Positions 8,767 to 56,100 of a stretch of DNA of 64,000 bases are shown here, in pieces. The position numbers and the translations under genes are program-made. The notes under the pieces were generated by a model. The model ran no database searches. It was not told the DNA's origin and saw only the letters and a program-made list of their open reading frames with translations. The stretch spans positions 496,001 through 560,000 of the forward strand of contig OY253688.1 of the NCBI GenBank assembly GCA_958009085.1, read 5' to 3'. Every line of letters starts with the position of its first letter. The first letter of the stretch is position 1. Source of the stretch: Protoeuglena noctilucae. Its lineage: Eukaryota.

Positions 8767-11700
8767 CTACACGTGCTCGGATGTGTCGGCGGGCACGACC
8801 TGACCCTTTGCGTTCCCCGGCATGCGTGGCGTGCTCTCCGCAAACACCAGGTGGCACCCGTAGGCGAGCGGTTCCCACTGCTGCAGGTCCACATCCCACT
8901 CCACCAGAACTGCGAGCAGCGTGACACATGTGCACGCTCCACATAGACCCCACGCGCCGCAGCGAAGGCGAGGCGGTGGCCGAATGCGGTCCCGGGTATC
9001 CACTAATCCATGCCCTCGCATGTTCTCTTGCAATCCATCCCTCGCCCGCACACCAGCCCACCACTCACCCTCTCCCATCGTCGCGTTGAACTGCAGCACC
9101 GTCCCGACAGCCCCGGCCTCCACCCGCCGGAACTTGCGTTTCGCTCCGGCCGTCGCGACCGTTGTCGCCCCCGACACATGCGACGGCTGCGAGCCCGCCG
9201 CAGAGCCCCCTCCCATGCCCCGTGCCCCCCCGTGGCCCTTCCTCGCCACCGACGGCCCGGGCATCACCTTCATCCCCGCCCACGCGGCCGGCAGGCTCAG
9301 CAGCGTGACGAGCGCCCCGTGCTGCGGCCGTGTGGTCGCAGGCAGCGGGGGGTCCGCCAGCGCCAGCTGGTACCTCGGTCGGTCGTTACGGGGCTCTCCA
9401 ACGCAGTACGCCGCGAGGGTGCCGTCGTCCCACAGCACCTTCCACCACTTGCTGTTCTCTCCCCGCTGCACGAGCGTCCCTGTGACGTGGTCGGGCGGCA
9501 CGTAGGAGCAGTCTTCCCGGTCGTCACTGAGGACCACGCGGAGGCCCCGGACGGCCGTGTCGAAGCGAACTGCGGGGGAGGAGGGTGGGGGTGAGAGGAG
9601 TGATGGGGCGCATTGCGAAGGCGAGAGAAATAAGGAAGCGCACTGCGGGGAAGAGGGTATGGGTTGCCAAGGGTGGTGCAGCGCACTGCGAGAGTAAAGA
9701 ATGGTGAGCAAGAGGCGTGTGGTGAATGGCGAGGACATTGTAGGGAAGAGGCGGGCAACAACCAAGGTGCCAGACCAAGCGTCAGTATCACGCTCCCCGT
9801 CCTCAGCTGCCACCACCCATGCGCATGCGAGAGAGCCAGCTCCCTCACCGACCATCCCAGGCAGGAAGTCCCCACGGCTCTCCAACCCCAGCCCCGCGCC
9901 GACCAGCTCCGCAGTCTTGTAGAACCAATAGGCCCCGTTCGTGTCGCTCTTGACCACCACGGGCAGGCTCTTGTGCATCATCACGTGCACCACGGTGCCG
10001 GAGACCCCAGGGGCTAAGCACCCGAGCTGCCCCACGCCGGCCGCCTCGAACCACCGAGGAGCGATGGTCACGCGGCACCCGACTTTAGCCACCGCCTTGC
10101 TCTGGGCCACCCCCTCGCGCGTGAGCCGCTGCAGCACGGGCCACACCGGCTCCATCTGCAGCCGCTTGGACTGCAGGATGGGCACGAGGGCTGACCAGAA
10201 GGCGCGCTCGTCTCGCTTCTGGTCGAACGGGTCCATCCGCATCGCTGTCTTGCCGGTCAGGCGACCCTTGTCGTCCGTCTCGGCCTCTGCAATGGGGGAG
10301 CGTGGGTTGGATGGTAACGATTGGCTCAAACGCTCACCCAGCATACCTCTCCTAGTAAAAGCGGCGATGGCTTGACAAACACATGGCCGATGCAGTCACG
10401 TCTCACCAAACACCTTGTTGAAGTGGTGTGGCTTGTTGCCCTCCTCGTCCTCCTCCACCTCTTGCGCCTCGAGGCGCTTCGCCCCACCCTCCAGTGCCAC
10501 GGCCGCCCGGTCGCACCCGTTCTCCAAATCGGCCTTGCGCAAGTCGAGGGGCACGTAGATGGTAGATAGACCAAGCGTGAGGAAGGCCAGGGTGGCCGCG
10601 AACCACCGGCGGACGGTGCGGCGAAGGTGGCTGGCGCGGCCGAGCTGCGGGGTGGGGGCGAGGAGAGGAGGGGTTGGTGGGTAAGAGGCGATGAGGGGTG
10701 GGGACGAGGAGGGTGTGGTGGTTGGTTAAAAAGCGATGAGGGGTAGGGCCAAGGAGGGGATTCTGAAAGGCGATGAGGAATGGGGACAAGGTGACATTGA
10801 CCTCTCAGCAAGCATGCTACCAGTCTCACCTTGTTCTCCCTGGCAACTACAGTGGTAGCGCAACCTCGCAGCGCACTTCCAGTCTCACCTTGTCCTCTTC
10901 CCTGGCAATCACGTTGGCCACCGGTATCTCCTCCCCATCAAAGACCTCCTTGGCGATCTTCTCGAAGCAACGGCTGGCGTAGCCACGGACGGAGAAGGCA
11001 GACCAGTACCGGCTGCGATGGCGCGAGCATGGAAGTGTGTGGGAGTGACAGGCAACAGTACAGGCATGCACGGATTGTGTGCCGCATGTGTGGGCTGACA
11101 ACGCAGTCGCCGCACATGAAATATAGTTGCATGGCTGCGAACCACCGCCCCTCACCTGAGCTTGAAGTAGTTGGCGCCTCCCTGACTCAGCAGCCTGTCC
11201 CGTGGGTCCCAGTCGCGGTAGATGTGCTCGTGGCTGTCCACGATATGCCGCATGGCTGCCGCCACGCGCCGCTTCAGCTCCACCACCTTAAAAGCCGTCT
11301 GCAGCTCGTGCATCTTGACCGCGTTGTACACCTGCGGGCGAGATACAAGAGAGAGAGGGTGAAGAGAGGTGCATACGGTGTCGCCCAGCGTCGCGCATTG
11401 CACAACGGCGGGCGAGTCACGAGCGTGCTCAGACCATCGCGCATCCCTCTGATTAAGAAATGCTTCAGAAGGCTCCTTGTACTGCAATGGTTATGGCACA
11501 TAGTTATGGCATCGCTCAAACCGCTAGCACTCCTGCACCTCCGCACTCACCTGCAGCACGATGCCGGCGTGGATGTCGCCCGGGTCCCCGTTCTCCTGCA
11601 CTCGCTCCCGGAACTGCGCGAGCTCGATGATGGACTGGTCGACGATGCCCAGGGACTCGACCCAGGCCTGCATGACGGTGACGGCCGTCTCGCAGGCCAC

Positions 11701-15962: not shown

Positions 15963-16038
15963 CAAGAGGGGCCCGATGCTGTCACACGTGCGTGTGCGGT
16001 TGTGCGTGTTTGTGCGGGCGGATTGATGTCGAGGTTTT

Positions 16039-17777: not shown

Positions 17778-20700
17778 ATGCCTCCTTCGCGCGGGGAGGG
17801 GAAGGGGCATAAGCTGCGCGGAGAGGCTCGTGCGCCGCCTTGCCTGCGCGCCGCGCTCCATCGTGGATTCCAAGCTGTCGAATGGGTGGACACCAGCGGA
17901 TCCACGTACTATGTCGACCCAGCGACGCCCTGGGCGCTCTGGGGGGAGCCCGAGGTCGCGCGGATGCGTGCGCGTTGGATTGCCGCGATGTCTCCCTCCC
18001 GCCCCCTCTCGCAGCCCTCTCCACCATGACCTGGTACTGACGGTCGTTGTTCTGGGCGCCTCGGGGGACCTGGCCAAGGTGCGCGGCCGGACAACGGCAT
18101 CGCCCGTGGGCGAGCTTAGTAAAGGCCTCCCCGCCCCGGCTGGCTTCGATGGGGCGCCCCGCCCCGATCAATGGCACAAATATAACCTCATGATTCTGCC
18201 GGATCGCAGAAGAAGACCTACCCGGCCCTCTTCTCGTTGTTCGAGCAAGGTTTCCTTCCGCCCACGGCCCAGATCATCGGCTTCGCGCGCTCCGACCTCA
18301 CCAACGAGTCTCTCCGCGACCGCCTGCGCTCTTTCCTCAAGTCCGACAAGCCGGGCACCATCGACGAGTTCCTCGCGCGCTGCACCTACGTCCAGGCACG
18401 ACGCGAGCGGGAGCGGCGCGCTCGTGACCCGCCCGCGCCCCGCCGGCCGCGACCCGCGCTTCTCAGCTCCGTCCACAGGGCCAGTACGACGCGCCCGCGA
18501 CGTTCCGGCCCCTCCAGGCCGCCATCAGCGAGCAAGAGTCCCGCGGGCCCGGTCCTTACGGCCGCCTGTTCTACTTCGCGCTTCCCCCGACCGTGTACCC
18601 CGAGGTGTGCGCGTGCCTGCGCCAGGAGTGCGTGGCGCATCACAAGGAGCACGCGGGCAACTGGCTGCGGATCATTGTGGAGAAGCCCTTTGGGAGGGAC
18701 GCGGAGTCGAGCGAGGCGCTTTCGAACGCGATGGGCGCGCTGTTCGACGAGCACACGCTGTACCGGATCGACCACTACCTGGGGAAGGAGCTCGCGCAGA
18801 ACATGGGTGTCCTGCGGTTCGCCAACACCTTCCTTGAGCCCCTGGTGAGGTCGCGAGGCGACGTGAGTGGACTGTGCAAGCAGGATGTGCGCGATGCGCG
18901 TGTGTGCATGGAGCATGCGCATGCTGTCTCTGTGTGTTATCAGCACGTGTATGCCTGGGAACTCCCGCAGTGGAACCAGCACTATACCATACATGAAGCC
19001 CATGGTCAGTTATGTTTCGCCTCATCCGCCCCCGCAGTGGAACAAGCACTACATCTCCAACGTCCAGATCGTGTTCAAGGAGCCCTTCGGGACCGAGGGC
19101 CGCGGGGGTTACTTCGACTCGTTCGGCATCATCCGAGACGTCGTGCAGAACCACCTCATGCAGGCCCTTGCCATCACGGGTGAGTGCAGTGCTTTGCATG
19201 AGTGTATGGGTGCAGCTCAGACAAGGTCGGTAGCTGACCGTCACGAGCGTGGCGGAACTCCTCACCACACAAATTGAAACTAGTCCGTACTAACATCTCA
19301 TCAACTCCCCGTCACCAACAGCCCACAACCCGCTCCCCGCTCACTACACCAGTCACCGCCCACCCCGATCACCCCGATCACCCCGCCCACCCCGCCCCTC
19401 GCCCCCAGCCATGGAGGCCCCCGTCTCCTGGAGTCCCGACGACATCCGCGACGAAAAGGTTAAAGTCCTGCGCGCGATCGAGGTCGTGAAGCCGGAGGAC
19501 GTCGTGATCGGGCAGTACACGGCTGCGGGAGACAAGCCGGGGTACAAGGATGACGACGGCGTGCCTCCCGATTCCCGCACGCCAACGTACGCCTGCTGCG
19601 TCCTGCGCATCCGCAACGCGCGGTGGCATGGCGTGCCGTTCATCATCAAGGCGGGCAAGGCCCTCGACGAGCGCAAGGCGGAGGTGCGGGTTCAATTCCA
19701 GAGCGTGGCGTCGGAGCTCTTTGGGAAGGACCCCGACAAGAGCCGGAACGAGCTGGTCATCCGATTCCAGCCTAACGAGGCCATCTACATGAAGATGAAC
19801 ATGAAGCTGCCGGGGCTGGAGATGAGGTCGACCATCGGGTGAGGAGACGAGAGGGGCGGGGTGGGTTGGACGTGTTGTGCTGACTGGGTCGGGGTCAACA
19901 GAGGAGCTTGTCGTCTTGCATTCGCGGCGTCCCTAGCACACACAGCGCCTCGCTCTGCTCTGTCCGTGCAGGGAGCTGGACCTTACGAACCTTACACACA
20001 GGTTCAATACACACGTTCATTACACACCACCCCGCTCTGTCTATGCAGGGAGCTGGACCTGACGTACAAGAACCGCTTTGATGGTATGCGTATCCCCGAC
20101 GCCTACGAGCGCCTCATCCTGGACGCCATCCGGGGGAACCAGCAGCACTTCGTGAGGTGAGAGGGTGTACGTGTGACATTGTAAAGGGAAGCAATTGGAC
20201 ATAATGGGTACTGAGCACGCCATCCGGGGGGACCAGCAGCACTTCGTGAGGTGAGAGGGGGTTTTTGGAGATGCTTTCTAGGGTCAGCAGCGCTGGGTGA
20301 GGTGAGAGATGGTTGTGAGAGATGAGAGAGGGTCAGCAGCATTTCGTGAGGTAAGAGTGGGTGGTTGTGAGGGGATACACAGCTGGGCAGAGAGGATCCT
20401 TTCAGTAAGAGTAGCACATACACGTTTCGTGCTCTCACGCAACCCCTCACCTCCCTTCCCTCACCTTCCTCACCCCCACATCCACCCACCCAGGCGCGAC
20501 GAGCTGACGGAGCAGTGGCGCATCTTCACGCCCGTGCTGCAAGGCATGGACAGAGGGAGTGTGCCACTCGAGACGTACGCCTACGGGTCGCGCGGCCCCA
20601 AGTCAGGTGCGTTGCTGTTGCTGTCTGCTGTGGTAGGTGCTGTGGTGGGGGGTGTGGTGGGGGGTGTTGAGGTGCGATGTGCGCTTACGGGTCGCGGGGG

Positions 20701-21322
20701 CCCAAGTCAGGTGAGGGCGATGGTGCCGATGGGGTGGGGTGTGGTGTGGTGGTGTGTTGGGGGCCGCTTCGATGGCCTGTGCTGGCCTGTGCTGTGTTGG
20801 GGGGTGCTGTGGTGTGGTGTGCTGGGCTGTGCTGTGCTTCTGTGACGGGCGGGGTGGTGCACCACGCATAATGTCAAGTTTACCAAGCTCCGTGCCTTGC
20901 CTCGCCTTGCAGGGGACGAGATGGTGGCCAGGCACGGCTTTGTGAAGAACGAGGGGTACAGCTGGGGAGCAGGGGCGACCGACAAGGATCTCTCTAAGGA
21001 CACCCGGCGCCTCAGCCTGTCCGCTCAGCCCCACGCACAGCCACAGCCACAGGCCCAGGCACAGCCCCAGGCACAGCCTCAGGCCCAGGCACAGCCCCAG
21101 GCACAGCCCCAGGCACAGCCCCAGGCACAGCCACAGCCCCAGGCACAGCCACAGGCGCACACGCATGCGGCAGCTGCGGCAACGACTGCGCAGGCGCAGG
21201 CACCAGCAACGCAGGGGCAGCAGCAGCAGGGGCATTCGCACGCACAGGGGCAGGGGCAGGGGCAGGGTCAGTTGCCGCCTCACCTGCACTCCACGGTGTC
21301 GTCGACGGTCGGGTCCAAGTGA
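17778..21322 (+). CDS. G6PD: Glucose-6-phosphate 1-dehydrogenase (cytosolic-type sequence) with Q/A/P-rich C-terminal extension, ~9 exons; start codon tentative
   Basis: [19 protein letters not shown] (NADP binding), [21 protein letters not shown] (active site), [85 protein letters not shown] and YGSRGP. Confidence 0.95.
21024..21155 (+). repeat. Coding tandem repeat (caggcacagccc-like units) encoding (AQPQ)n in the G6PD last exon
   Basis: gcacagccccag/gcacagccacag/caggcccag units are in frame with [10 protein letters not shown] and run on to TGA 21320-21322. Confidence 0.85.
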
Positions 21323-21872: not shown

Positions 21873-24800
21873 CTACGCGTCGCTGCTCGCGGGGCCGCTC
21901 ATCACGCCCGGCTGCCACGTCGTGCCATTGGGCGTGTCCATCAGCATGATGCCGACCGAGGCCAGGCGGTCCCTGCGATGATTAGATGGCGGAGGTTGCA
22001 TCGTGGATTCGAAATCAGCACATCGTTATTATAATGATACTAGCTATCAGCAGAACCCACCCTCACCACACCCCCAACACCCCACACACCACCCCACATC
22101 CCCACCCTTCTCACCTGACTTGGTCCGACTTGGCGAAGTCCTTGGCCTTCCTCGCCTCAGCACGTTCCTCGATGGCCCGCAGCACGTCCTGCTCCGTCAT
22201 GCCGTTACGCGCCAGGCACACGCGCTTGATGCTGTCCATGCTCTGTTCGAGTGAATCGGTGTCGATTCCCATCAGATCCAGGGCGCGGGTGATGCCCTCG
22301 TGGAGGCTGGAAAGCACGAAAGCACGAAAGGGGTCATCAATGGGGTAGGGCGTGGCATGTCGCGGCGCGGGGCAACTTGGTGTGCCTGCCATGTAACTAG
22401 ATTAGCAACCTGTCGCGTCACTTCCAGCAGCCCACAGCATTATCATCATCACTGCGCATCGAACGCCATCACTCCGCACCACAACCACACGCATCACCAC
22501 CATGCACCACCCCGTCCTCGCCTGGCCAGCACCGCGACCCGGTCTGCCCTCTTCTTGCCCTTCTTGGTCTGACAGAGGTCGTTGATCTGCTTCAAGGGGC
22601 CACTCAGGGACGCCAGGGCCTCGGGGGTGCTGCGGGGAAGGCGATTGAAGCAATATGTTTGTGTCTAGGAAACATGTATGTTTGTTGGCCTTATCTTGGT
22701 ATCTATACGATGGGCTGATACCGTGCATAGCTCAAAACCCGCAGTCTTTTGCCTCACAACATCGCTGCACCTCACCCCCAGCCACTCCCTGCCGTCACTC
22801 CCTGCCCTCACCCCCAGCCACCGCTGCCCTGCACTGCACTGCACCTCACCCCAAGTCATTCCTCAGCGCCCCCTCCACCTCCCTCAGCAGCTCCCCCCCC
22901 GGCCCCGCCCCTTTCCCCACATCGCTCCCCGCCCCCGCCATCTCCCGCTCCCCAGCCCCCTCCGATGCCTGCAATGCCTGGCGGCACTCCCTGCGATGGA
23001 CGAATAATGGAGATGGGGTAGGTGGGGTCCTTGGTTAGAAAGGGATAGAGTTGTCAGGCAGGATAGGGTAGGATAGAAAGGAACACAGTAGCCAGTCATC
23101 ACATCACTCACGCGAGGGTGGCGTAGACGTAGTACAGCCGGCACGAGGCGTCGTCGAGCGCCTGCGACGAGTAGTTGACCGGCTGCCGGTAATGCGTACT
23201 AATCAAGAACCACCGCAGCGCCATCGGGTGGTATTTCTCCAACACGTCTCGTATCGTGAAGAAGTTGCCGAGGCTTTTGGACATCTTCTCAGCATCCACG
23301 TTCACGAAGCCGTTGTGGACCCTGGGGGTGGGGGTTGGTGAGGGGTGGGGGGTTTAGTGGGAGTGGCTTGGGTGGGGTGATGGGGGGTGTGATGGGGGGT
23401 TTACGGGGCGTTGGGTGTGAGAGGAGGGATACAGGTGGTGGGCGGCAGTGGTCACATGCCCATCATGCCCGTCACACGCCCACCATAACTGACCAATAAT
23501 ATATATCCCTTTATATTCCATGTTCCATATCCCTTTATATAATATAATATAATATAATATATAATAATAAATAAATAAGAGTTAATTATATTAACTCTTA
23601 GCTAATTATCGCACCGGCTCACCAGAACCGTGCGAAGTCCACCCCCCCCGGCATGTGCTGTTTGTCGCACTCGCACGCGGCTGCCTGCGACTGTGCTATC
23701 TCGTTCTCATGATGAGGGAACACCAGGTCCATGCCGCCCCCGTGGATGTCGATCACGGGACCAAGCATGCTCCTGGGAAGGAACAGGGTTGCGGGACAGG
23801 GTTGGATTTGGTTAGTGACGATGTATTTGCAGATAAACCTCCCTCATCTGCACTCAGCCACATGACAACAGAACTGATACTAGTAACAACCATTACACAC
23901 ACATACACTCTCTCGCCTAATCATGGTCGAGCACTCGATGTGCCACCCCGGCCGCCCCTTCCCCCACGGGCTGTCCCAGGTGGGCTCCCCCGGCTTGGCC
24001 GCCTTCCACAGCGCGAAGTCCGCTGCGCTGCGCTTGCCGGAGGAGTCCTGGAAACGAGGGGGGAGGGCATTTTGTTACATTGACAGTCATGACGACAGCT
24101 GTGGACAGCGACCGGTAGCGGTGACGGGGGTTGTATACAATGACACTCCCTGCCCCTATCAGCCTCAGAAGGGCACGAAAGCAGCACCGAAACATAAAAG
24201 CACGATAACAGGATGGCCGCAGCACGAAAGCACCGGACCGACATCAGAGCACGGAATGCGGCCCTCACCGCCGCCACGCGCTGGGACGCCCCCGCCATGT
24301 TGTCCTCCTCCCTCCTCCCCGACAGCCTCCCGTACCCCTTCAGCGACTTCACGTCAAAGTACACGTCCCCGTCCACCGCGTACGCGTGGCCGTGTTCCAT
24401 GATCCTCTCGATCGTCGCGACCATGTCTGGAACGTGCTGCGTGGCCCGGGGCTCCAGTTGCGGCCTGAGGCAGTTGAGGGCATCCATGTCCTGGTGAAAT
24501 GCGTCGATGTAGGTTTGGGGAAGGTCGCCTGGGTCCATGCCGCGCTCTTGGGCCCGCTTGATGATCTTGTCATCGATGTCGGTGAAGTTGCGGCAGTAGG
24601 TGACGTCGAGGCCGGACGAACGCTGCAAGGGGGAGTGGGTGAGTATTTGTGCTGTCGATGGCGAGTCATGTTGCGGCAGTAGGTGACGTCCCAAGACCCA
24701 AGGAGTGCTGCCATATGCAGAGTGGAAATGATCTTACCCTACCCAATGGTGACTTTGTGTCTATGCATTGACTCACCAGGACTCGGAAGAGGACGTCGAA

Positions 24801-25760
24801 TGCCACGTAAGCCCGGGCGTGGCCGATGTGGGAGTAGTCGTACACTGCATTATAGAGAAGGAGAGGCGAGGGTGATGGTGAGAGTGGTGGGGGTGGATAG
24901 GGTGTTGAGGCTGGTGAGGGTGGCTGGTAAGGGTGGAGGGGGTGGTGAGGGTGGTCGGGGTGGTAAGGGTGGCAGGGGTGGCGAGGGTGAGGGTGGTGAG
25001 GGTGGCGAGGGTGAGGGTGGTAAGGGTGGCGAGGGCGGCGAGGGTGCTGAGGGCGGCGAGGGTGGCATGGGTAGTGGGGGTGGTAAGAATGGCGAGGGTG
25101 GTGAGGGTGGCAAGGGTGGCGAGGGTTGCAAGGGTGGCAGGGGTGGTGAGGGTGATGGGGGTGGTGAGGGTGGTGAGGAGGGTGGGGGTGGTGAGGGTGG
25201 TGATGAGCATGGTGGGGGTGGTGAGGCCGCATTGCAAATAAGCTGTTATGCGCAAAGAACGCCCCGCTCAAAACGCACCTGTCACCCCGCACACGTACAT
25301 CAACACCCTCTTCCCCTGCCGCAACCCACCTGTCACCCCGCACACGTACATGGACACCTTGTTCCCCTGCCCCTCCCTTGGCGTGAACTCCTCCTTCTTG
25401 CGAGACAGCGTGTTGTACAGAACCACCGGCGCGGATGCGACATCCGAAGTCACGGACGCCTCGCGGGCGGCGGCGGTCGCGCGGCAGCTGCCGCTCAAAG
25501 CCCGGCGAGTGGCGTGGGGAGAAGAAGCCGCAAGCCACGGTGCCGCAGCCCTGGGGCTCCACGCCCCCGGACGGCCGACGACGCCGGACCACGTCCGCAG
25601 CGGTCGCCGTGTCGCGAGGGGAGCGCAGCCCGTCGCCGGGGCGCTGCGCGGGCGGACATAAAAGGGGCCGGTGACCGGTCGCAGCGATGCCCGGTTCGTA
25701 GCTGCCTCCAGGGCCGCATCGGGGGGCAGCTGGATGACGAACACGCATAGTGGAATCAAG
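21873..25760 (-). CDS. CARS: Cysteinyl-tRNA synthetase with probable organellar targeting extension, ~10 exons; start uncertain
   Basis: [31 protein letters not shown] (HIGH), [86 protein letters not shown] (KMSKS), [15 protein letters not shown]|..[16 protein letters not shown] at 21873-21875. Confidence 0.93.
23495..23610. repeat. AT-rich intronic low-complexity tract with (TATAA)n microsatellite
   Basis: tatataatataatataatataatataataataaataaataa inside a CysRS intron in otherwise GC-rich DNA. Confidence 0.8.
24900..25226. repeat. Intronic G-rich minisatellite of ~9-bp units (gagggtggc/gagggtggt/aagggtggc)
   Basis: Degenerate tandem units fill the CysRS intron between the CGVT and VYDYSHIGH exons. 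The G/E-, H/P- and T/L-rich ORFs here are repeat by-products. Confidence 0.85.
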
Positions 25761-32700: not shown

Positions 32701-34475
32701 GATACCATCTTTGACAACGTTCGACTCTGCACCCCATGACACCCTCGCACCCACCCCCCTTCCCGCAGCCCACGGTGCACTCGGACGCCGATGCGGAGAT
32801 GGCAGAGATGGATGACGTGGCAGCAAACGCACACGACATGCAAGACATGCGAGATGTGCAAGACATGCAAGACGTGGGCAGGGCAGCTGGCTATGGGGAG
32901 GCGCATGACACGCAAGACATGCAAGAGGTGCAAGACTTGGGCAGGGCAACGATGGGGGTGCAGCACATGCATGACAAAGCTGGGGGGGTGGGCCAGGATG
33001 TGCAGAGCACAGCTGGCTACGGGGCTGGCTATGGGGGGGCGCAGGGCGCGCACAACGGTGCGGATCTACCCTTACCAAGTAACACAACACACGGAGCGAG
33101 CCACGATGGCGCAACCTCCGCTGCCCCGCCCGCCCCCTCGCTACCCTCCCACACGCTTTCAGACCCCATTGCTACCCCCACACCCGCGCACCCGCACCCG
33201 CATCCGCCCATCCCCGACAGCGTTTTGCGATCCGGGCCGTCGCCGGACGCTGCTAACAACGCGAGTGCGAGCGGGGGGGGTGGTGGGTGCAACTGCCCCC
33301 GATGCCACAGCTGCTGTGGGGGTGACTGCGGTGGTGGCGGCGACAGCGATTGGGGCAAGTGGGCAGGGTGGGTATGCGAGCGGGCGTGGGAGTGGCCAGG
33401 GGAGCGCGCGGGAGCTGTTGCCTGGGGCGCCACGCAGCAGCGCGGGGCTGTCTGGGAGTGGCGGGGGTGGCGGTGCGGGTGCGGGTGGTGGTGTGAACGG
33501 TGGTGTGCATGGCGCAGGGGATGAGGGTAACAACAACTTGACGCCGATGGAGCGTCAGTTGCGGGCCATTTACGGCTGGCTAAGGGCGCTGGACCTTCCG
33601 GTGGACGAGGGCGTGGGGCTGACGGACCTGGTGTCCGACGGGGTGCTGCTGGTGAGGGAGTTGGTGATGCTGCTATATGTGATGATGGTTGAGAGGGTGG
33701 ATAAGATTGGTTGACTGGGTGTTACAATGATTGTTCCGTGTGCCCCAAGCCCGCTCACCATCACCCATGCACATCTCACCCACCCCACCCACCACACCTC
33801 CACTCCACCCTCACCACCCCACCCACTGCAACTTCCCCCCCCCTTCCCCCCCCCCCCCCTCATCCCCCCAATGCAAGCTAGCTTCCCTCCTCACCATCAA
33901 ATGCCTGCCACCCCACCCCCTACACCCCCACCCCTCTTACCACCCTCACCACCCCACCCCACCCATCCCTCACCCCTCACTCACCCTCATCACCCCATGT
34001 ACCCCCCCCCAGTGCAAGCTAGCTTCCCTCCTCACCGGCGATGTCCTGGACGGCGTCCACTGGGTCCCCAAGGCCCCCGCAGCCGCCATGCAGAACCTGA
34101 GGAAGGGGCTGGGGGTGCTTTCCGATCGCATGGGGGTCGACGCGCTGCACCTGCCGGGTGAGGGGTTAGATGCAATAGTGACATGGTTGACATGTGGTGT
34201 GGATTTGTGTTTTTGTAGTTATGGTTACAAGCATGATCACAATCATGATGTCTATTGTTACAAAGCGAAAAGCTATGATATAGTTGATGTGCTATTATAA
34301 TCCACTGCTTCCCTTCCCACCCGCAGACATGGACGACATGCTTTCCGGCGGCGACGAGCGCGTGGCGAGCACGCTGTGCCTGGTCGAGCGCAGTCTGCGC
34401 AAGGAGTGGGCGCGGGTGGCCAAGGCGCGGGCCGGGGGGCGCTACCGGCTGTCCAAGGGGCGCGTCTGTTTCTAG
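26786..34475 (+). CDS. Large S/P/R-rich protein with a C-terminal calponin-homology (CH) domain, ~14 exons; spans an assembly gap, so could be two genes
   Basis: Spliced exons include RPEEKVPYTFQPELNPKS and RYMQPT/FMRPT/YMTDT motifs. The C-terminus IYGWLRALDL...LTDLVSDGVLL|CKLASLL...AAAMQNLRKGLGVL...LP|DMDDMLSGG fits a CH-domain pattern (W..DL.DG.LLC.L...N). An apparent frameshift lies in the G8 run at 33273-33280. Confidence 0.6.
32099..32298. other. Assembly gap (200 N)
   Basis: Run of n characters. Confidence 1.
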
Positions 34476-37728: not shown

Positions 37729-37893
37729 GGCTGGAGGGGCTGCCAGCGGCACGCCGAACGGCGTCGTCTAGAAAGCAACGGGGTCCGCGTCACTATCCTT
37801 GAATCTCCCTATCCTCGCTCCGACCTGACCAATTCTACGTAAATATCGAATTTTCCTACCAACACTAGGGCAACGCAGGCGCAGGGCTTCCAA

Positions 37894-41125: not shown

Positions 41126-44100
41126 ATGGGCGCAGCGCAAGACCCATCGTCGCGCGGCCGGCCGCCGCGCACCGCTGACGGCGCGGCACAAGGTGAGTAT
41201 CCGTGCTTGTGCGCGTCTGGTCGCGGCCACCTGCCCTCTGAACGCTTTGGCCCGCGATCAAATGCACGCGCACGTCTGGGAGCTCGCCCCCGCCGCAGTC
41301 CGCGTGAATCCGCGCTCCGGCGTGGCACTAGGCGGGAGAGGCGGGCCAAAGGCGCCGGGAGAATCGAGTCGCGCGGCGGGGTCGACGACATGGGAGGGGA
41401 ACATATCGCAACTCATCCACCCGCGCCTCGTCTTCTCCGCGCACGCCGCCAGAGCGGGGGCCGGCAGGTGAAAATACTGCGCGAGACCCGCTTCGTTTAC
41501 CTTCGGCCCTCTGCGCGTCGAGGCGCCCCTGCTGGGGACGGTACAGCTGCGCACTGCGACCCCCTCATCATTCGGCCTCGCTGTCGCCCCGCAGGGTCTC
41601 GCGGCCGGATGTGGGTCAGAAGGTTGCTGGTTCAAAGGGACCTCTGACGGTCCAGGAAGCCCTGGCGGCCGCTTCGCGCGCCTCCGCAGCCATCGAGGCG
41701 ATCAGCGCAGGTGAGTCGCCCCCGCGGCCGCCCGCCCGCTCATCTGCGCTCCCTCGCTGGCGCATTCGCATTCGAACCAGTGTTACGTTATTTTGCGCGC
41801 AGCTGCGCACGACCGCTTCGCTTCCCCGCGGCCCCTACCGCGCAAAGACGGTCCGTTCGTGTTGCCTCGGTCCCGGGAGCCCCTCCGCCGCCACGACCAC
41901 GACGCGGAGATCCAATCGCTCACACCTGAGGCCCTGCAGCTCCTCCTCTCGCTCCGGACGTCGGCCGCGGCCGTCCGGGACACGCTCGCCAGCACGGGCG
42001 CCGCGGCGGGTGCAGCGCGAGACCTCGCGCCCACCCCGTCCCGCGGGCGCTCGAGGGAGCGTGCGAATGTCCCCGTCGCCGCGTCGCCGCGCTCTCCCGC
42101 GCGTCTCGCGGCCGGAGTCATCCCGACGTCCCCGGCGCCGGATGTCGGCAGTCGTGGGGATGCGGACTACCACCGCGCGCGATTCACCGACGCTTCCGAC
42201 TCCCCGGACGCGGCCCCCGCCGCACCTCGCGCGAAGCGGGCGCCGGCAGCGGCCGCGCAGCGTGTGCGATCGGCGTCGGCAGCGCCGTCCCGCTCCGCCC
42301 CAACCGCAGCTCGGCCCCGCCACCGTTCCGCGTCTGCCGCGCCCGCTCGGGCCCCCCGCGTGCGGACGCGCAGCGCGCGGGAGGCGTCGCCGGGCGCGCG
42401 CGCGTCCGGGCGCGGCGGGTCTGCGCGGGAGTGGGGCGTCTCAGGCCCCCGCGCTGCATGGGAGGACACCCATCGCCACGTCGCTGAGTGGGCCGCCGGG
42501 ATCCGCAAACGCAACGCCCGGGGCGTCGCAAAGAAGACCCTCGTTCCAGGCACGTGCTCCTTGCGCCGCGCCAGTAAACGCCAGTATGATTTGTGCCGCC
42601 CGTGCATCGCCATTAGTCAAGACTGTGACCGGCCTGGCTTTTCCACCCGCAGCGCTGTGGTCGGGCCGCGAGGTGGCGGCCGAGCGCCGCCAGAAGGCTC
42701 TGCAGAAGGAGGGGAGGGAGCAGCGCAGGGTGGAGCGTGCGATCAAGGCGGCATGCAGCGACGAGGGCGGTGGGGCGATCGCCAATGCCCCTTTGGTGCT
42801 GGCCAGTCTGCGTGCTTACGACCGCCCCTGGACGACTCACATGTCGCGCAAGCGTGGCGCGGAGCAGCTGGGGGGTGGGCGGGCTGGTGGGGATGCGGGG
42901 GGTGCGGGTGGGGCGGGGGCGGGTGCGGGTGGGGGTGGAGAGGACGCGCCAGCGGCACGGCCGGTGACGGACGGTGAGTCGCGGGCGGGGTGGGTTGGGA
43001 TTCACGATGCATGGTGCGTGATGCATGGGCGGCGGGGGCTGTATGGGCGGGGGCGGCTCACGTGGGGCGACGTGTGTTGTTGGTCATGCACTACGGCTCG
43101 TACTGGAAGTAATGACCACATGGCATTACGTGCTGATACCAGCACGTAGTGTTTAATGTGTTGACGTTTTCCAGGTCGTGCCGAAGGGCTTGGTGGCTGG
43201 CGGTGTGCAGCCGAGCACACATGGCATCGACAAGCAGTCTCGCGTCATAGCGAGCGGCCGCTTCCAATTGCCATTATGCGATTGTGCGACCATAAACCCC
43301 CCTTACCCCCTTTGCAGACGTCAAGGCGCTTCTGGCGGACATTGCCAGAAACCCCCGGCGCCAGTACGCTGCGCCGTGGCAGGCGGGGATGGTCAAGAGG
43401 CGCCGTCCGGACGCGGCCGCGGGTGCTGGAGCAGAGGCCAACGTTGGTAATGCCAACGCTGGTGTTGATGCCAATGCCAGTGTCGGTGTCGGTGCCGGCA
43501 AGGCCGACGTTTCTGGCAACGCGCTCATTGGCGAGGGGGACGGCGAGGTCGGCGCGGGCGTGGATTTGAATGACAGGGTGGAGGAGGGGGCGGAGGCGAG
43601 GGGGAGCGCGGCGGAGGGGGGGGTGGAGGAGAAGGGTGGGGGCGAGAAGGGAGGCAGGCCGACGAGGGCGGAGGTGAGGGAGTGTGATGGAGAGGGACGG
43701 GATGGATGCAGGCTTGGGTAGTGTGATGCTTGGCCATGGCGCATCCGGCTTTGGCTCCCCACCAGCACCCTCACAGCAACCTGCCCCACACCCACTCCTC
43801 TCACCTCTCACCTCACCTCACCTCACATCAACCCAACCCCCCCCCACCCCCATCCCCAGGTCCGCGAGCGTTTCCTGGCCCGCCTGGCCCAAGAAAGGGA
43901 GGAGCGGGAACTGGCGGCGTTTGAGCGCGCGTATCGCACAGCACGTTTCCAGACGGTGGTGTCCTTCCTCAACGAAGCACATTTGGCGCAGGCGCGGGCG
44001 GCGAGGGCGAGGGCGGAGAGGAGGGAGGAGGAGCGGGGGGGGATGGCCAGGGATGGGCGGCAGTGGAAGGACATACTGGTGAGGGAGAGGGATGGGTGGT

Positions 44101-47100
44101 GGTGGTGGTGTGGTGTGGTGTGGGGTAGGGCGGGGCGGGGTGCTGTGTTGTTCAGATAGACATGCGGCAGTGGAGGGACATACTGGTGAGCAGGATGGTG
44201 GTGGGGAGTGATGTGGTTGGGTGTGGTGTGATATCGATGCTGTGCCGCTCCCCCACCACTCCCTCACATTCATATACCCACCCCCACCCATCTCTCCCCA
44301 ACCTCCCCAGGAGCCCAAGCCCGCCCGCCGCCTCCGTAGCCCCACCCGCAACACAATCTCTCCCCGTCGCTACGCCTTCACCCCACGCTCCGCCCAAGCC
44401 TCGCCCTCACCCGACGCGTCCCCGCGCGTCCGGTTCCCCACGCCTGACCCGGGAATGGCGGGAACGGCGGGGCATGGGGGTAGCCCTGTTGTGCTTGGGC
44501 AATCGGGACGGGCGGCGAGCCCTGTGTTGGGGCTGGGGCAGGGAGGGCGGGCAGCTAGCCCTGTGCTTGGGCAGTCGGGGCGAGTGCTGCAGGGGCAATC
44601 GGGTCGTGCGGCGAGCCCTGTGTTGGGGCAGTCGGTGCATGCGGGTGGCTCTGCCGTAGGACGGCCGCCGCTGTTGCGGGGTGGCTCGGCGGGGCAGCTG
44701 TCCGCACGGGCTGGGATGGGGCAGGGGGTGTCAGGGCAGCTGTCGGGAGGTGCTGTTGCGGGGCGGGCGTCGGCAAGTGCAGCTGCTGGGGGACAGCTGT
44801 CGGTAGGCGCTTCAGTGGGGCAGCTACCCAGCAGTGACGTGCATGCTGAGCGTGCTGGGATGGGACATGCACCCAGCACAAGCAGTAACGTGCGTGTTCA
44901 GGGTACCGCGCCATCGCCATCGCTGCCCATCGGTGTCGCTGTCGATGGTAATGCAGCAATGGGGCTATCCAGACCTGCTACCATGGATGTGGTACAACCA
45001 CAGGGCGAGGCCAGCATGCAGGCGCTGGTGACGGGGGGTGGGGCAGCGGTGGCTACGGGTCCGGCGGAGGTGGGTGGGGGAGGGGTTGGTGGTGCGGGTG
45101 CGGGTGCAGAGTTGGGGGGGGCGACGGGTGCTACTGCAACAGTGGCCCCTGCACCGGCCACTGCACCGGCGCAGGCCGTCATCGCATTCACCCCACAAGT
45201 GCCAGTACCAGCGCCAGTGCCGGCGCTAGTGTTGTCAGAATCGTTGCCAGAGTCGATGCGCGTCGACCAGGGCTTCGCGGCGCGTGTGGCGCGTGAGCTG
45301 ATGGCGCTTGACGCGAGGCTGGGGGAGCTGGCGGGAGCCGTGCCGCGACTGCAGGCGGCCATTGCTGACGCCCGGGGTGGGTCCACATCTGGGTCCACAT
45401 CTATATCTGGGGATGCATCTTTATCTGGAGATGTGTCGGTGTTATCCGCATCGCTGGTATCCGCATCGGTATCGGCACCGCCATCTGCATCGGTATTGGC
45501 ACCGGCTCCCCGCGCTGCGTCGCGATCCGCTGCCAGCGATGTCGGCGCTCCCGGCCACGCGGGCGTTTCTGGCATCTCTGGCGGTTCTAGCATCCCTGAC
45601 CGTGTGCCCGCGTCGGGCCCAGCACCTGTCGAGGGTTCGACAGCTCCCGAGTCAGCTCCCGAGTCGGCCCCCGCGCCTCGCACCTCAAAGCCGGCGCCAG
45701 TGTCGGCGTCAGTATCCGGGAGTGGCTCCGAGTACTCTGACAGCTTCGTCAGTGCGGTCAGTGCGTCGCAGTCAAGAGAGCCATCGCACGCCGCTGCTGC
45801 CTCCGCGGGTGGCGATGCGAGGGGAGCGCCCCGGCAGTCACATGACGCGAACGTGCTGTTGCCCGGCGATAACGTGCTCTTGGCCGGCCAGTGGGGCAGG
45901 GGGCTGCAGCACGCTCCGGGGAGTGGGTCTGATCACAACGCCGGCGGGGTTGGGCGTGTGGGCGGTGTGAGCGGTGGCGGCGGTGGTGGTGGGGCTGCGA
46001 GGGTGGCGTCGTTGCCCGTGGTACGCTCCTCATCTCACGCCACGGCGACTGTGTCATCGTCGATGGGTGGTGATGATACAGGCATGGATGATGATGCGAT
46101 GGGTAATGTGGCGGTCACTGACAATGACGATGTCCCAGCCATGGACGTGTTAGACTGGCAGTCGTCCGTTGCCAGCTCCGTGTTTCAGAGGGAGCCGCGG
46201 TGGGCCCCCGACGCGGCGCTGCGGCGGGGCAGGCGCGACGGCTCTGGCACAGCCGCTCTGGCGCCAGAACTGACGGTGTCAGGGGCGCTGCCGGAATCGC
46301 GGGAGGGGTTGACGCGGCCGGGGGGGTCCTCGTGGCCGTCGTCGGGATCCGTTTCTGACACGGACGGCGATCTGAGTCAGTCCCAGCCCCCCCACCTTGG
46401 TCAATCTCAAGTGGATGGGGCGGGGGCTGTGGGGAGGCGGAGACGGCGTGTTGGGGAGGGCAACAACGGTGCCAGTGTTGATGGCCTGGCGCGTGCGGCA
46501 CATGAGATGGAGATGCGGGAAGCGGCATCGGCCCCAGTCGCTGCGGGCGAGGGGCGGGGGGCGGGGGCGGTGGATGCGGCGACGGGGGCGGAGAGGGCGG
46601 CGGTTCTGCGGGCGGGACTGCGCGCCGCGTTCCGTGGTTACGCCGCGGGACTGCGCGGGGAGCGGGGGCAGGTGGCGGGGCGCAAGCGGACGCTGGCGAT
46701 GGCAGCTGGGGGTGGGGGCGTGAGTGGTGGTGGTGGTGGTAGTGGTAATGGTGTGGGTATAGGGAGACCACCCCGGGATTCGATCGCGGATGCGCTGCGA
46801 ATGCAAATGTCGAGGGGAGTGGGCGGTGGTGGTGCACGTGGGGGTGTGGGTGCGGGTGCTATGCTGCCCGCAGCCATCTCAAGCCCCCTCGCCGCGTCTC
46901 TCCGCGCCTTTTTGGACGAGAACATCGTCGCGGCCTTCCAGCGAAAGCGCGCGAGAGTCGAGGAGGAGCGGGCGCATCAGATGGCGAGGGGGGGTGCGGG
47001 TGCGGGTGCGGGTGCGGGTGGTGTGGTGGGTGTGGCACATGCAGCGACACAGGCGACTGGGCTGGGGCCCGCGGAGTCCCTCGTTGCGGCAATGGCAGTT

Positions 47101-53100: not shown

Positions 53101-56100
53101 GGATAGGGACAAGAGCGGATATGACGTCTCTTTGCGATCAATAGATCCAATCGATACAATCATCGACCATCCATCAGCAGAGCAATTGGGGGCAGCGGGG
53201 GTGGGGGCGGAGATGGGGGATGTGGCGAGCGGTGGGGTGGGTGAGGGTGGGAGTGAGAGTGGCGATGGGGGCGGGGAGGGGTGGAGCGGGGATGTGGGGA
53301 GCACGCCGGAGGGTGGGAGATCGGTGATGAGCGAAGAGGGGAGTGGGGGTGGTGGTGCGGGTGTGGGTGGTGGTGCGGGTGGTGTGGGTGTGGGTGGTGG
53401 TGCGGGTGCGGATGTGGCGGGGGATGAGCTGGGTTTACCCCCCCCGCTGTCCGAGGAAAGTCGATCTCGTCTGGACGTGTCGATGGCGGGAGCGAGGGCG
53501 GGTGAGGGGTGTTGCGGGGGTGGGGTGGGGTGGCGGGCGTAGGATGCGTGATGTGGGCTTGATGTTTGCTGACATGATAGATTACGATTAGATTATATTG
53601 TATTCATTTTTGACTCGACATTATATGATAGCGGTTTCTTTGCATTTATTATAGTATGTTTATGTCAAGTTATTATTACCATTATTGTTAATATTCACTA
53701 ATTTTCATCATCATTACCCCCAATCGCAGGCGAGGCTTCTTATACCGTCGACTCCCTGGAGCCCCCCGACGAGGAGGGGATGCTGGAGGGGGGGGCGAGC
53801 GGGGTGTATGGCGAAGAGGGGGAGGTGGTGATCGAGGGGGAGGGGAGCCTGGAGGTGAGAAGGCGTGCGTTGGTTGGGTTGTATGTAGTCATTTCTCTAT
53901 CTATCTAGTTTTCTTCTTATAATTTTTTTTTGTTTTTGGTAATATTAATACATATAATTATAAATATAAACATTATATTACAATCATTTTATTACAATGC
54001 TATCCTCCCCACCTTCCCCCCCCAGCTGGAGAGCGAGGCCAGCCTCTCCATCGACGCCCCCCGCTCCGACGACGCCGACTTCACTTCAAATTCAAATTCG
54101 AATCCCAACGCGCCCCCGCTGTTCTCCGTCCATTCGGGCGGGTCGGAGAAGTTCGCCATGTCCCCGCCCCGCAACGACGATTCCGCTTCCTTTGCAATGG
54201 GCGTTGCTAACACTGGCACAGCCGGGAGCAGTGGTGGGGCGGGTGGGGGTGACCCTCGCGCCCTGACGTCAGGCGGCCCAGCACTGACACAGTCAGTGTC
54301 AGAAGGCGTTTCGCGGGTGCCAGAATGGCGGTCGCGGGAGGGGGGTCCCGGGGCGGCGGGGGAGGTGTTGGTGGATGAGTTGATGGCCATGGTGGTTGAC
54401 GAGGCGGTGGGGGCGGCGGTGGGGGCGGTGGTGGGGAAGGGGAGGGGGGTGGGGGCGCTGATGGAGGGGCTGGTGGCGCGGTGAGGGGGTATTGAGGATG
54501 TGGGGGGGAGGGGGGGGGGGGGGGGGGATGCTTGGGGTGTGTGGCGAGTGCAGTTTGTTGGGGGTGTGGTTGTGGGGTTTGCGGGTGGTTATGATGAGCC
54601 TAGGTTGTATTCACAGGCCCTCCTCCCTATTTTCCTCCCTCTCTCTTTCTCTCACACCCACACACCCACTCAATTACTCATCGTCACCTCCTCCTCTCTC
54701 CCCCTCAGCCACGGCTCTGCCCTCGATCCCCCCTTGGAGCAAGCACAGACATCGGCAATGCCACGGTCACCATCGCTGAATGAGAGACGAGGGAGCGGGG
54801 GGGTGCAGGAAGGGGGTGAGTGGTGGAGATGGGGGTGGGGTGGTAGTAAGGGTGGGGTTGAGGGTGGCAGTGGGGGAGGCAGTGAGGGTTGCTGTAGCTG
54901 CGGCAATGAGGATGGTAGTAAGGGAGTTGGGGTAGCAGCGGGTTTTAAAACCCCTCACATTTCATCATCTCACCCCAACCCATAACCACCCCAACCCATC
55001 ACCCCTCCCTTCCCCCCCAGACCCCTCCCTCCCCATTGTCGACCTCTCCCTCCCAACTATTGAGGCATATTTGGACCGAGTGCTGCATTGCATGGCAACG
55101 CTGGGGGTGCACGATCATGAGGGGCTGGCGGAGTGGGGGACGAGGGACTATCTGGAGATCGAGAGGGGGGGGGATACGGTGAGATGGAGGGGTGGGTGAA
55201 ATAGGAATATTGATAAGCTGATTGAGAGGGGGGGGATAAGGTGAGCTGCGAGGGGTGGGTTACATAGGATGGGATATTGATAAGCTGATTGAGAGGGGGG
55301 GGGGATAAGGTGAGTGGAGAGAGGGGTGGAGTATTGATGAGCTGATCGAGAGGGGGGGGGGATAAGGTGAGAAAGTGGATGAGAATGGGGGTGGCTAATA
55401 GTTATGGAGATGAAAAGAGGGGCGACAGGATAATTATTGCGTTTTTTGTTGATCATTGTATGCATAACACATTATCGATGGTGACCAGCATACGGTCCCC
55501 AAGGCCACAGTTGCTTGGTACAGTTATTGCTATCATTTATCAATAATTTTGCATTAATAACAGTATTTCTCCATCCCCCCAGGTCTCTGACCACCAGCAC
55601 ATGGTCCACAAGGCCACAGTTGCTCAAGGCCACAGTTGTTACTTGTTATAACTATTGTTATAAACAACAACTAAATCATACATATCTCTCTATTTTCCAC
55701 TTTCAGGTCTCTGACCACCAGCACATGGTCCACAAGGCGATCTTCGATGCCGCGACCGAGGCCGTGCTGTTGCACCAGGCCAAGGCATTGCCGGGGAGAT
55801 ACCCCCGCGGAGTGATGGGGGATCGAGTCACGCCCGTCGCTGTGAGGGGGGTGGTGGGTGGTGTGGGTGTGGGTGTGGGACTGGCGGGTGGTGTGGGTGC
55901 GAGTGCGGGTGCGGGTATGGGTGGTGGTGCAAGTGGGGCTGCAAGTGGGGCTATGGACGATGCTGACACAACAACGGCAACGGGAGCGGGAGTGGGAGTA
56001 GGTGCGAGCATGAGTGCGGGAGCGGGAGTGGGTGCAAGTGCGGGAGTGGGGTCGGGCGTGTTGGCGATGGCGAGAGAGACGGTGCTGGGGTGGGCGAGGC

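Follow-up and report, generated by a model that had tools for sequence, protein, structure and literature searches.

Diverged copies of exon-intron junctions inside the introns of Protoeuglena noctilucae: local duplications that take in an exon edge and its splice signal

Introduction

Duplications over an exon-intron boundary are known from the human F7 gene. Its IVS7 minisatellite is a 37-bp VNTR with the first unit over the exon 7-IVS7 boundary, and of its identical 5' sites the most upstream alone is used (Borensztajn et al. 2006, PMC1557585). Local duplication has also been connected with the origin of introns. Gao and Lynch reportedly put forward tandem duplication as an intron source in 2009, and Hellsten et al. 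are said to have treated tandem genomic duplication and intron origin (the Rogers model) in 2011. Lehmann et al. (2010, PMC2891723) and a review (PMC3443670) treat new introns and shifts in intron position as possible products of tandem genomic duplication. Further precedents come from mobile elements and from break repair. Huff et al. reportedly described introners as transposon-derived introns in 2016. Later papers place such introns in Micromonas, Aureococcus and others (PMC9860276, PMC12130899), and new introns in Daphnia carry short flanking repeats according to work cited in PMC2891723 and PMC3443670. Two other papers describe small tandem duplications arising by fill-in of staggered breaks (PMC8355091) and, at integration sites in O. 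tauri transformants, a 518-bp direct target duplication and insertions of 55-83 bp of unknown origin (PMC8002553).

Here we analyzed a single 64-kb window, the whole stretch of DNA under study, from the marine green alga Protoeuglena noctilucae; all counts refer to this window. An earlier note on this DNA had claimed that diverged copies of splice junctions, which we call echoes, lie inside the intron of the junction they resemble.

Results

Most junctions were taken from our own crude Viterbi predictions with manual fixes, and several gene models were corrected by hand, the echoes having misled the predictor. The G6PD junctions were set by homology to P0002, and those at 25330 (CysRS) and 28840 (CH gene) by RNA contigs. 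Two of the gene names proposed earlier, G6PD and CysRS, were confirmed, the latter with PF01406 in the exon at the 24573..24690 echo. The names 'pLGIC', 'CH', 'paralog A' and 'CEP350-like' gained no such backing, a Pfam search of the tested exons giving no match. The median exon in the window is ~153 nt long.

The claim of diverged junction copies was borne out by all 18 neighboring pairs that we aligned, which gave local alignments scoring between 26 and 82 (+2/-3). Paralog A 36598/36656 scored lowest, with 16 of 18 bases. A dust-filtered blastn search of the window against itself (E<=1e-3) returned 20 non-self matches, 15 of them direct repeats 77-128 nt apart; the other five were distant, and none lay between echo introns or joined spacers. 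Ungapped segments numbered 139 at offsets of 25-400, against 5 at 3025-3400 and 12 at 6025-6400. When short-period sequence was removed, 31 direct repeats were left at 25-400 nt spacing and none at either far-offset control, and three such repeats occurred in 342,004 bases from 80 unrelated metagenome loci of other organisms. Both copies are contained in single contigs of an independent metagenome assembly (X6) at six echo loci (the four-copy G6PD donor, CysRS a and b, CH_a, and paralog A a and b). Five of the six do not differ from the window, and the CH_a record (29326-30477) differs by a single letter and a single gap. The copies are thus not assembly artefacts, in line with the earlier statement that they are not simple assembly duplicates.

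The earlier note had proposed a genome-wide comparison of each junction with its own intron and with unrelated introns, which we carried out within the window. With our rough models of its genes, 17 of 105 introns (~16%, about one in six) held an echo of their own junction, 50-140 bases deeper, found by 19 junction probes, and 8,400 comparisons of a junction probe with other introns gave none. Exon-interior probes, placed 45-85 nt from the junction, gave no echo in 210 cases and mid-intron probes two in 105. No block contained more than 43 nt of exon. The copies are real local duplications that take in the exon edge and the splice signal. Echo introns had a median length of 298 nt, against 195 nt for other introns, in agreement with the intron lengthening claimed before. 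In our models the junction lies in the first copy at donors and in the last at acceptors, as had been stated, with CysRS 24590/24672 as an exception; this rule amounts to what preserves the reading frame.

The G6PD gene (plus strand) has a newly found acceptor echo at 18964..19051 (echo 18964-18984, real junction 19037/19038, 20 of 21 bases, exon start by P0002 homology), an acceptor echo at 19957..20067 (echo 19957-19990, real junction 20048/20049, period 77), a four-copy donor at 20123..20373 (real 20156/20157; echoes 20217-20262, 20285-20324 and 20334-20373; repeat family D16) and a donor echo at 20572..20763 (real 20606/20607, echo 20676-20713, period 104). The X6 contig over the four-copy donor spans 19982-20661 with 0 differences. 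Copy 2 of this donor reaches 17 nt further into the exon than do copies 3 and 4 and is therefore an independent event. On the minus strand lie a donor echo at 10820..10897 (real donor 10888/10889; echo 10820-10838, 59 nt deeper; 27 of 30 bases matching, two small gaps) and the CysRS gene. The latter has a new donor echo at 22766..22862 (real 22849/22850, 20 of 23 bases, with a TRF array of 36 nt over the intron end) and an acceptor-side echo at 24573..24690, in which exon positions +16 to +50 recur at 24655-24690 within intron 24623-24776; in this pair (24590/24672) the conserved block begins 16 nt into the exon and the acceptor region of the echo has decayed. A third CysRS echo, at 25272..25371, is a donor in a 51-nt tandem unit whose real copy leaves the exon at 25330, as placed by an RNA contig. 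Its echo donor near 25279 would, if used, add 17 in-frame residues.

The CH gene (plus strand) carries donor echoes at 28822..28939 (new; real 28840/28841, echo 28906-28939) and 30102..30268 (real 30144/30145, echo 30221-30268, period 119, family D20), the latter with an AT-rich, unrelated spacer. At 30983..31264 the acceptor is present in three copies, a whole-unit tandem of 121-124 nt (real 31226/31227) with a 171-nt alignment and whole-unit z scores of 6.3 and 7.3. The new donor echo at 31574..31685 (real 31609/31610, echo 68 nt downstream) and the acceptor echo at 31790..31943 (echo 31790-31829, real 31907/31908, period 114) share an intron. A further acceptor echo at 33864..34036 (echo 33864-33895, real 34012/34013) has its AG mutated to AA. 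In paralog A (minus strand), the donor echo at 36101..36266 (real 36233/36234, period 90, 37 of 40 bases) is covered over both copies by an X6 contig, and the echo at 36598..36676 (real 36659/36660) is weak, its score of 26 lying at the top of the null range. The CEP350-like gene (plus strand) has a donor echo at 44057..44230 (real 44078/44079, period 107), where the spacer is also similar (z 3.7), and a four-copy donor at 55157..55372 (real 55178/55179, family D19), a whole-unit tandem with period 57-67 that TRF reports over 55157-55370 with period 57 and 3.4 copies. Its three-copy acceptor at 55484..55738 (real 55706/55707) consists of units that each begin with GT and end with CAG; in the last pair, 55580/55704, the block is identical at 35 of 35 bases and the rest of the unit at only ~62%. 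At 57290..57441 (minus strand), the last codons and stop TGA of a coding sequence, its end taken from our own model and ORF 57414-58037, are copied twice in the 3'UTR with stops TAG and TAA. Five echo loci add to those listed before: 18964/19031, 22766/22840, 28822/28906, 31574/31642 and 57290/57365/57416.

The decoy splice sites that the earlier note had claimed were recovered with a donor matrix. Fifteen of 16 echo donors scored 5.1-8.3, compared with medians of 5.4 for real donors and 1.1 for intronic GTs; the sixteenth has its GT in the alignment, the coordinate being off in the matrix scan. RNA contig X11 record 3 departs from the genome at 25330, the proximal CysRS donor, and X8 record 26 fits exon 28429-28840, a 121-nt exon and 29375-29803. 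The exon-proximal copy is therefore used in RNA at these two loci, and none of the RNA contig matches listed used an echo site. At the remaining loci, the proximal choice is predicted from the logic of the reading frame.

We then compared the sequence around the blocks, which are 88-100% identical. Whole-unit similarity was found in five of 19 pairs (two at CH_b, and CEP_a, CEP_b and CEP_c), where 0 of 300 shuffles reached the observed score and the similarity lies on the side expected of a junction-spanning unit. The term tandem duplication, used earlier, suits these ~5 pairs but not the 11 of 19 that are short blocks with a spacer indistinguishable from shuffled sequence, that is, a direct repeat of the target around an unrelated insert. 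Searches for the source of the spacers within the window stayed at shuffle level and found none. Mismatches in the exon part fell 7, 10 and 17 times at codon positions 1, 2 and 3, or ~6% at positions 1-2 and ~12% at position 3. Echo divergence thus about equals the synonymous rate and looks neutral, the pattern expected if the echo drifts freely and the exon changes at synonymous sites. Because divergence is this low and neutral-looking, the unrelated spacers cannot be decayed remainders of duplicated units.

The echoes have counterparts away from splice sites. Among 11 TRF arrays with a period of at least 30, 6-7 were intron-internal and 3 spanned an intron end. Internal repeats were present in roughly nine introns, exons contained in-frame duplications (32835-32950), and the stop codon/3'UTR edge at 57290..57441 showed the same kind of echo. 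In view of the intron-internal arrays, the exon repeats and the stop-codon echo, the duplication process is not splice-specific, and the 'junction-centred' process of the earlier note is not supported as worded. Its proposed comparison with a mid-intron null gave a divided answer: TRF arrays are mostly internal, yet per 40-nt site echoes occurred at 19 of 206 junctions and at ~9 loci in ~509 non-overlapping intron-internal sites. A 3-5-fold per-site junction excess remains and is only in part accounted for; roughly half of it (a factor of about two) could be due to constraint acting on the exon copy. Block-only pairs are almost never intron-internal.

Under the Rogers model, the start of an intron should be an in-register copy of the downstream exon start, and its end a copy of the upstream exon end. 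Over 20 nt in 118 introns, mean matches were 5.63 and 6.03 against a null of 5.75 and 5.99, and the highest values, 10 and 11, did not reach the 99.9th percentile of the null (12). In-register matches being at null level, these introns do not support intron gain by tandem duplication of an AGGT exon segment.

Discussion

The echoes resemble the F7 minisatellite in that units take in the 5' splice site together with the end of the exon, and pseudo-donors that are identical or nearly so lie behind the authentic donor. At the two loci where RNA contigs bear on site choice, these fit the most upstream donor, the one used in F7. As in F7, a first unit lies over the boundary and later units hold pseudo-splice sites, 15 of 16 echo donors being real-like. 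In contrast to that single locus in one gene, the window has echoes in ~16% of its introns, these also copy acceptor sides and a stop codon, and most pairs are blocks with unrelated filler between them rather than head-to-tail copies. To speak of an undescribed route, as was done before, overstates the case, given that boundary-spanning duplications and the F7 minisatellite are already published (PMC1557585, PMC3443670, PMC2891723). What is known is a single-gene precedent; what we describe affects many introns at both ends and is mostly filler-separated. As in the Rogers model, duplicated splice signals are tolerated because one copy is spliced out. However, the introns here pre-exist, the echo holds intronic bases (a polypyrimidine tract and CAG, or GTGAG), and intron ends are not in-register copies, and hence the events lengthen introns rather than create them.

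Like insertions at repaired breaks, the echoes combine a direct target duplication with some tens of inserted bases of untraced origin, and the O. tauri precedent likewise comes from a marine green alga. The duplications of 19-58 nt differ in size from the 5-12 nt reportedly seen at new introns in Daphnia and from the single 518-bp case in O. tauri, and it is in their sequence pattern that the natural echoes resemble these cases. With introners the echoes share marine algal hosts, insertion-linked duplication of exon sequence beside splice sites and intron content that varies widely among relatives. Unlike introners, they show no repeated family, shared termini or inter-intron similarity in the 64-kb window. 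Similar copies in different genes, as expected of transposon-derived introns, did not turn up among the echo introns of this window.

We lean towards reading the echoes as neutral scars, left in a genome where short local duplications arise at a high rate. From the observed repeats, their placement, their neutral-looking divergence, the use of the proximal site in RNA at two loci and the non-junction counterparts we infer break repair followed by a survival filter. In one form, a 19-58 nt segment would be duplicated and its copies parted by 25-109 nt of unrelated filler: a staggered break whose two ends are both filled in, and then joined through captured filler, would leave a target duplication flanking an insertion. 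In the other, head-to-tail duplications of 36-124 nt would arise and could later expand to arrays of 3-4 copies. Such events would fall in introns, exons and UTRs and persist only with the reading frame intact, that is, wholly in non-coding sequence, in frame in a tolerant protein region, or straddling a coding edge with the extra copy in the intron or 3'UTR. Echo copies would persist since splicing removes them, the upstream-most copy having to be used at a donor and the downstream-most at an acceptor. Straddling events would stay visible longer because selection on the exon holds one copy and the exon-derived block is complex sequence. Several observations sit uneasily with neutral scars. 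Constraint covers only a factor of about two of the junction excess, block-only pairs are nearly absent inside introns, uniform placement of ~100-nt units would not predict an exon part capped at 43 nt, and the 55580/55704 pattern needs patchy homogenisation or a second event; the evidence also comes from one window with self-built gene models.

Alternatively, duplication or break repair could be truly targeted to exon-intron junctions, for example if breaks cluster at the G-rich starts and C-rich ends of introns, at polymerase pause or R-loop sites, or at nucleosome edges. The per-site excess, the near restriction of block-only pairs to coding edges, their breakpoints 3-15 nt into the intron and the recurrent events at one junction, such as the independent copy 2 of the G6PD donor, all point this way. 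We nevertheless consider targeting unlikely, since in the TRF class intron-internal arrays are no rarer than those over junctions, a stop codon is echoed without a splice site, constraint on one copy and low-complexity intron sequence should produce some of the excess, and the sample is small (~20 loci).

Rather less probable is that all pairs began as whole junction-spanning tandem units, the intronic remainder having been lost by slippage and indels or the block held by short-tract gene conversion. This would suit the five pairs that keep unit similarity with a better preserved block (in CH_d, 0.97 identity against 74% overall; likewise CEP_c), the many microsatellite-like spacers, and a 10-mer that the CH_a spacer has in common with the stretch following copy 2. 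However, a neutral-like divergence of ~6% predicts remainders 85-90% identical, and 11 of 19 are at shuffle level; ongoing conversion tracts would also erase third-position differences and cannot create the extension of G6PD copy 2 past the homology of the older copies. That selection keeps the decoys as U1-binding, enhancer or regulated unproductive splice sites is very improbable: every echo donor retains its GT (~3-5% by chance at 90% per-base identity), and at 15 of 16 the matrix places a strong GT no more than 4 nt away, but echoes diverge at the synonymous rate, some acceptor echoes have no AG, and the GTGAG motif itself helps detection. Finally, direct repeats flank unique inserts, and in the nearest relative found, at loci L001 and L002, the G6PD gene is 81% identical but without any intron, so that intron content differs sharply within the lineage; even so, target-site duplication by an introner-like or other mobile element that makes or extends introns can hardly be credited, as introns and spacers lack mutual similarity in the window, the 19-58 nt blocks far exceed typical TSDs, which are much shorter, and intron ends are not in-register copies of flanking exons.

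Compared with neutral scars, a biologically farther-reaching though doubtful reading is that exon-intron junctions, and coding edges in general, are hot spots of break-and-fill-in repair in this alga, which repeatedly copies a 20-60 nt edge with its splice signal and filler into the intron. If so, this process would rank among the main causes of intron growth and would keep supplying strong decoys that the spliceosome must ignore by position, and the genome would hold a natural experiment on splice-site choice and intron lengthening across its whole length.

Copies of splice junctions inside their own introns

Introns in the window carry diverged copies of their own exon-intron junctions, placed deeper inside the same intron, which we call echoes. 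The earlier note had described such neighboring copies from the sequence alone, and all 18 pairs that it had located align locally, with scores of 26-82 (the lowest for 36598/36656). When the window was compared with itself by BLAST (dust-filtered, E ≤ 1e-3), 15 of the 20 non-self matches were direct repeats spaced 77-128 nt apart. Ungapped segments at offsets of 25-400 numbered 139, compared with 5 and 12 at two far-offset controls of equal width, and after removal of short-period segments 31 repeats were left, against none in the far-offset controls. The offset scan returned 3 repeats from 342,004 bases in 80 loci of other organisms, many of them intron-poor, so that this control speaks for genome specificity and not for a like-for-like rate. 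Simple assembly duplication does not account for the copies: contigs from an independent metagenome sample (X6) cross both copies at six echo loci, five without any difference from the window and one, the record 29326-30477 in the CH gene, with one other letter and one gap. Among the differences listed between these contigs and those of 'organism A' (X4), none was a copy-number difference at an echo locus, although contigs lose rare variants.

We aligned each junction with its own intron and with unrelated introns, testing the 105 of 118 introns that are at least 90 nt long. Donor probes comprised 40 nt (30 exonic and 10 intronic), and an echo was counted at a score of at least 30 in the own intron. 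This yielded 11 donor and 8 acceptor echoes, compared with 0 of 8,400 comparisons of probes with other introns, where the best score was 29. Echo-bearing introns thus number 17 of 105 (16%), two of them with both donor and acceptor echoes; all rates given here come from a single 64-kb window and our home-made gene models. Four echoes had previously been overlooked (18964/19031, 22766/22840, 28822/28906 and 31574/31642). The idea that echoes lengthen introns agreed with the median lengths, 298 nt for the 17 echo-bearing introns and 195 nt for the other 88.

Gene models and relatives

The window has a G+C content of 65% and contains nuclear genes, rich in introns, from a photosynthetic eukaryote. 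X4 contigs cover nearly all of the sequence up to a 200-N scaffold gap at 32099-32298 and end at its two edges (32098 and 32299). Besides G6PD (17572-21432), assigned by homology to its relative P0002, we identified cysteinyl-tRNA synthetase (CysRS), ferritin, UFD1, PsaL and ankyrin repeats; for the genes called 'pLGIC', 'CH', 'paralog A' and 'CEP350-like', a Pfam search with their exons had no match. The closest proteins with a named source belong to green algae and share 60-84% identity, and no protein of a named organism was nearer; the sole 100% match, P0122, is the PsaL fragment of the window itself. The sequence is present in 'organism A' runs and several marine metagenomes, and marine metatranscriptomes contain 26-45% of its words, in agreement with the exon share.

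Junctions in G6PD were set by homology to P0002, which is 81% identical. Outside G6PD and the RNA-supported loci they came from our own first-round Viterbi models, based on codon usage and splice sites and corrected by hand at three places where echoes had misled them; the predictor had called two echoes exons and had chosen an echo donor in CysRS. In RNA contigs, exon 25330-25643 is spliced over intron 25644-25828. A separation of 123 nt between exons 28427-28836 and 29373-29802 in such contigs agrees with a 121-nt exon at 29070-29190. These structures indicate that the exon-proximal donor, and not the echo, is used at 25330 and 28840. At most loci the predicted junction lies in exactly one terminal copy, as had been proposed: the first copy for a donor and the last for an acceptor, read in gene orientation.

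In the closest relative loci found (L001, 1-1353, and L002, 2323-3747), G6PD is uninterrupted and adjoined by a different gene than in the window, with an identity of 81% across the long exon. For G6PD in the window, homology establishes at least six introns, and our model predicts about nine; hence, intron content varies sharply within the lineage. Introns near residues 211-233 also occur in a few other loci, so at least one G6PD intron position may be old.

Introns throughout the window (e.g. 30146-30210, 31822-31910, 53551-53730 and 55396-55584) have a three-part architecture consisting of a G-rich part after GTGAG, an AT-rich complex core and a C/T-rich end; 55 such AT-rich islands fall below 40% G+C against the 65% of the window. 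The CysRS intron 24845-25329 contains a G-rich 9-nt minisatellite of about 39 copies (24876-25226). Both X4 and X6 contigs show skips and small indels over it, and it therefore probably varies in length or assembles poorly.

Echoes as decoy splice sites

Echoes create decoy sites, as the earlier note had expected. A GT lies within 4 nt in 15 of 16 echo donors, with matrix scores of 5.1-8.3 (median 5.4 for real donors; median 1.1 and 90th percentile 4.5 for intronic GTs), and the sixteenth likewise keeps its GT in the alignment. Four of the eight echo acceptors are strong and one lacks an AG; the other three either were scored at shifted coordinates or involve an oldest copy without the junction part. 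The echo donor in CysRS, if used, would insert 17 in-frame residues beside the HIGH motif. Each acceptor echo unit at 55593-55706 opens with GT, as does the true exon, and closes with CAG; these units could in principle be removed successively by recursive splicing to give an identical mRNA.

Junction specificity

The process is only weakly junction-centered, if at all. Exon probes 45-85 nt away from the junction gave no echo (0/210) and mid-intron probes gave 2/105, while tiling of intron interiors with 1,018 complex probes gave 54 matches in 15 introns. By our reading, matches in about six of these introns stem from the junction-derived arrays themselves, and in about nine introns the repeats are exclusively internal, several being G- or C-rich; junctions are therefore about 3-5 times richer per 40-nt site. 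This per-site excess is what stands of the earlier proposal of a junction-centered process, since intron-internal, exonic and stop-codon counterparts exist. The expectation that junction-spanning duplications outnumber intronic tandem arrays failed within the TRF class: 6-7 of the 11 TRF arrays with a period of at least 30 are intron-internal and 3 cross an intron end, and one of the 11 is an echo-derived array.

In-frame tandem repeats occur within a predicted exon of a low-complexity protein (32835-32950, periods 9-63 nt) and in the G6PD 3' region (21026-21156, periods 12-42 nt); the latter was modeled as an intron and may be C-terminal coding sequence. At 57290-57441 (minus strand), the last codons of an ORF and its stop codon have been copied twice into the 3'UTR, and the three stops read TGA, TAG and TAA. 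Together with the exonic and intron-internal repeats, this suggests that coding edges in general are echoed, and not splice sites as such. Selection holding one copy of a junction pair would by itself double the pair's detectable lifetime.

Age and origin of the echoes

The duplicated blocks are 19-58 nt long and 88-100% identical, with periods of 48-141 nt, divisible by three in 8 of 22 cases as expected by chance. Exon-derived mismatches number 7, 10 and 17 at codon positions 1, 2 and 3 (136, 137 and 140 sites), leaving out one mis-registered row with which they number 8, 13 and 21. The resulting divergence, ∼6% at positions 1-2 and ∼12% at position 3, matches the outcome expected if the echo drifts freely and the exon drifts at synonymous sites, and this pattern indicates that the pairs are young and the echoes neutral-looking. 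The intronic echo at 20222-20251 encodes ten residues identical to the relative's protein and keeps an Asp codon where the expressed exon (20128-20157) reads Asn, indicating a non-synonymous change of the exon after the duplication.

Tandem duplication, as originally proposed, fits some of the pairs. In 5 of 19 the remainder of the unit is also similar, on the side predicted for a junction-spanning tandem unit (0/300 shuffles), whereas in 11 the spacer is indistinguishable from shuffled sequence. Searching both strands of the remaining window for a source of the spacers gave nothing above shuffles, and the youth of the pairs rules out the unrelated spacers as decayed remnants of a tandem unit. 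Pairs with an unrelated spacer probably arose as block-filler-block. By analogy, a staggered break that is filled in and then rejoined with captured DNA would leave such an arrangement. A study of Ostreococcus tauri transformants describes a 518-bp direct target duplication at integration sites and inserts of 55-83 bp of unknown origin (PMC8002553), and another shows that fill-in of 3' overhangs in mammalian cells gives small tandem duplications (PMC8355091).

In our preferred interpretation, the echoes are neutral scars left by very active local duplication, of which only events that preserve the reading frame have persisted. This reading leaves the modest excess at coding edges unexplained, and three observations do not agree with it: the exon part of the block is always at most 43 nt, block-only pairs are nearly absent from intron interiors, and the block of the 55580/55704 pair is identical at 35/35 positions with ∼62% identity in the remaining unit. 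Patchy homogenization may therefore be superimposed, and a superimposed break hot spot associated with junctions is conceivable but unlikely. Tandem duplication as an origin of new or shifted introns is treated in a review (PMC3443670) and has been demonstrated in Drosophila (PMC2891723); here, the introns already existed and an in-register comparison, designed to detect newborn introns of the Rogers type, was negative, and an introner-like family is rejected since the introns of the window show no similarity to one another.

Significance

The echoes form a pattern that is real, frequent and neat. They resemble the human F7 intron-7 minisatellite, whose first unit straddles the boundary between exon and intron; identical pseudo-donors come after it, and the donor lying furthest upstream is the sole one used (PMC1557585), but that case concerns one locus. 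The earlier suggestion of an undescribed route thus has a one-locus precedent; a literature search lacking most subscription journals turned up no account of systematic junction echoes from any alga. If the pattern reflects nothing beyond a filter on which ordinary duplications survive, the echoes are a neat illustration and no new mechanism. They do mislead gene predictors. If the window is typical, about one intron in six has a full-strength decoy splice site 50-140 nt from the real one, which would offer hundreds to thousands of natural F7-IVS7-like cases for studying how the spliceosome chooses among identical sites, and a datable record of short introns growing by steps of ∼100 nt. The pattern would likewise point to a local-duplication and repair pathway of unusual activity in a marine green alga.
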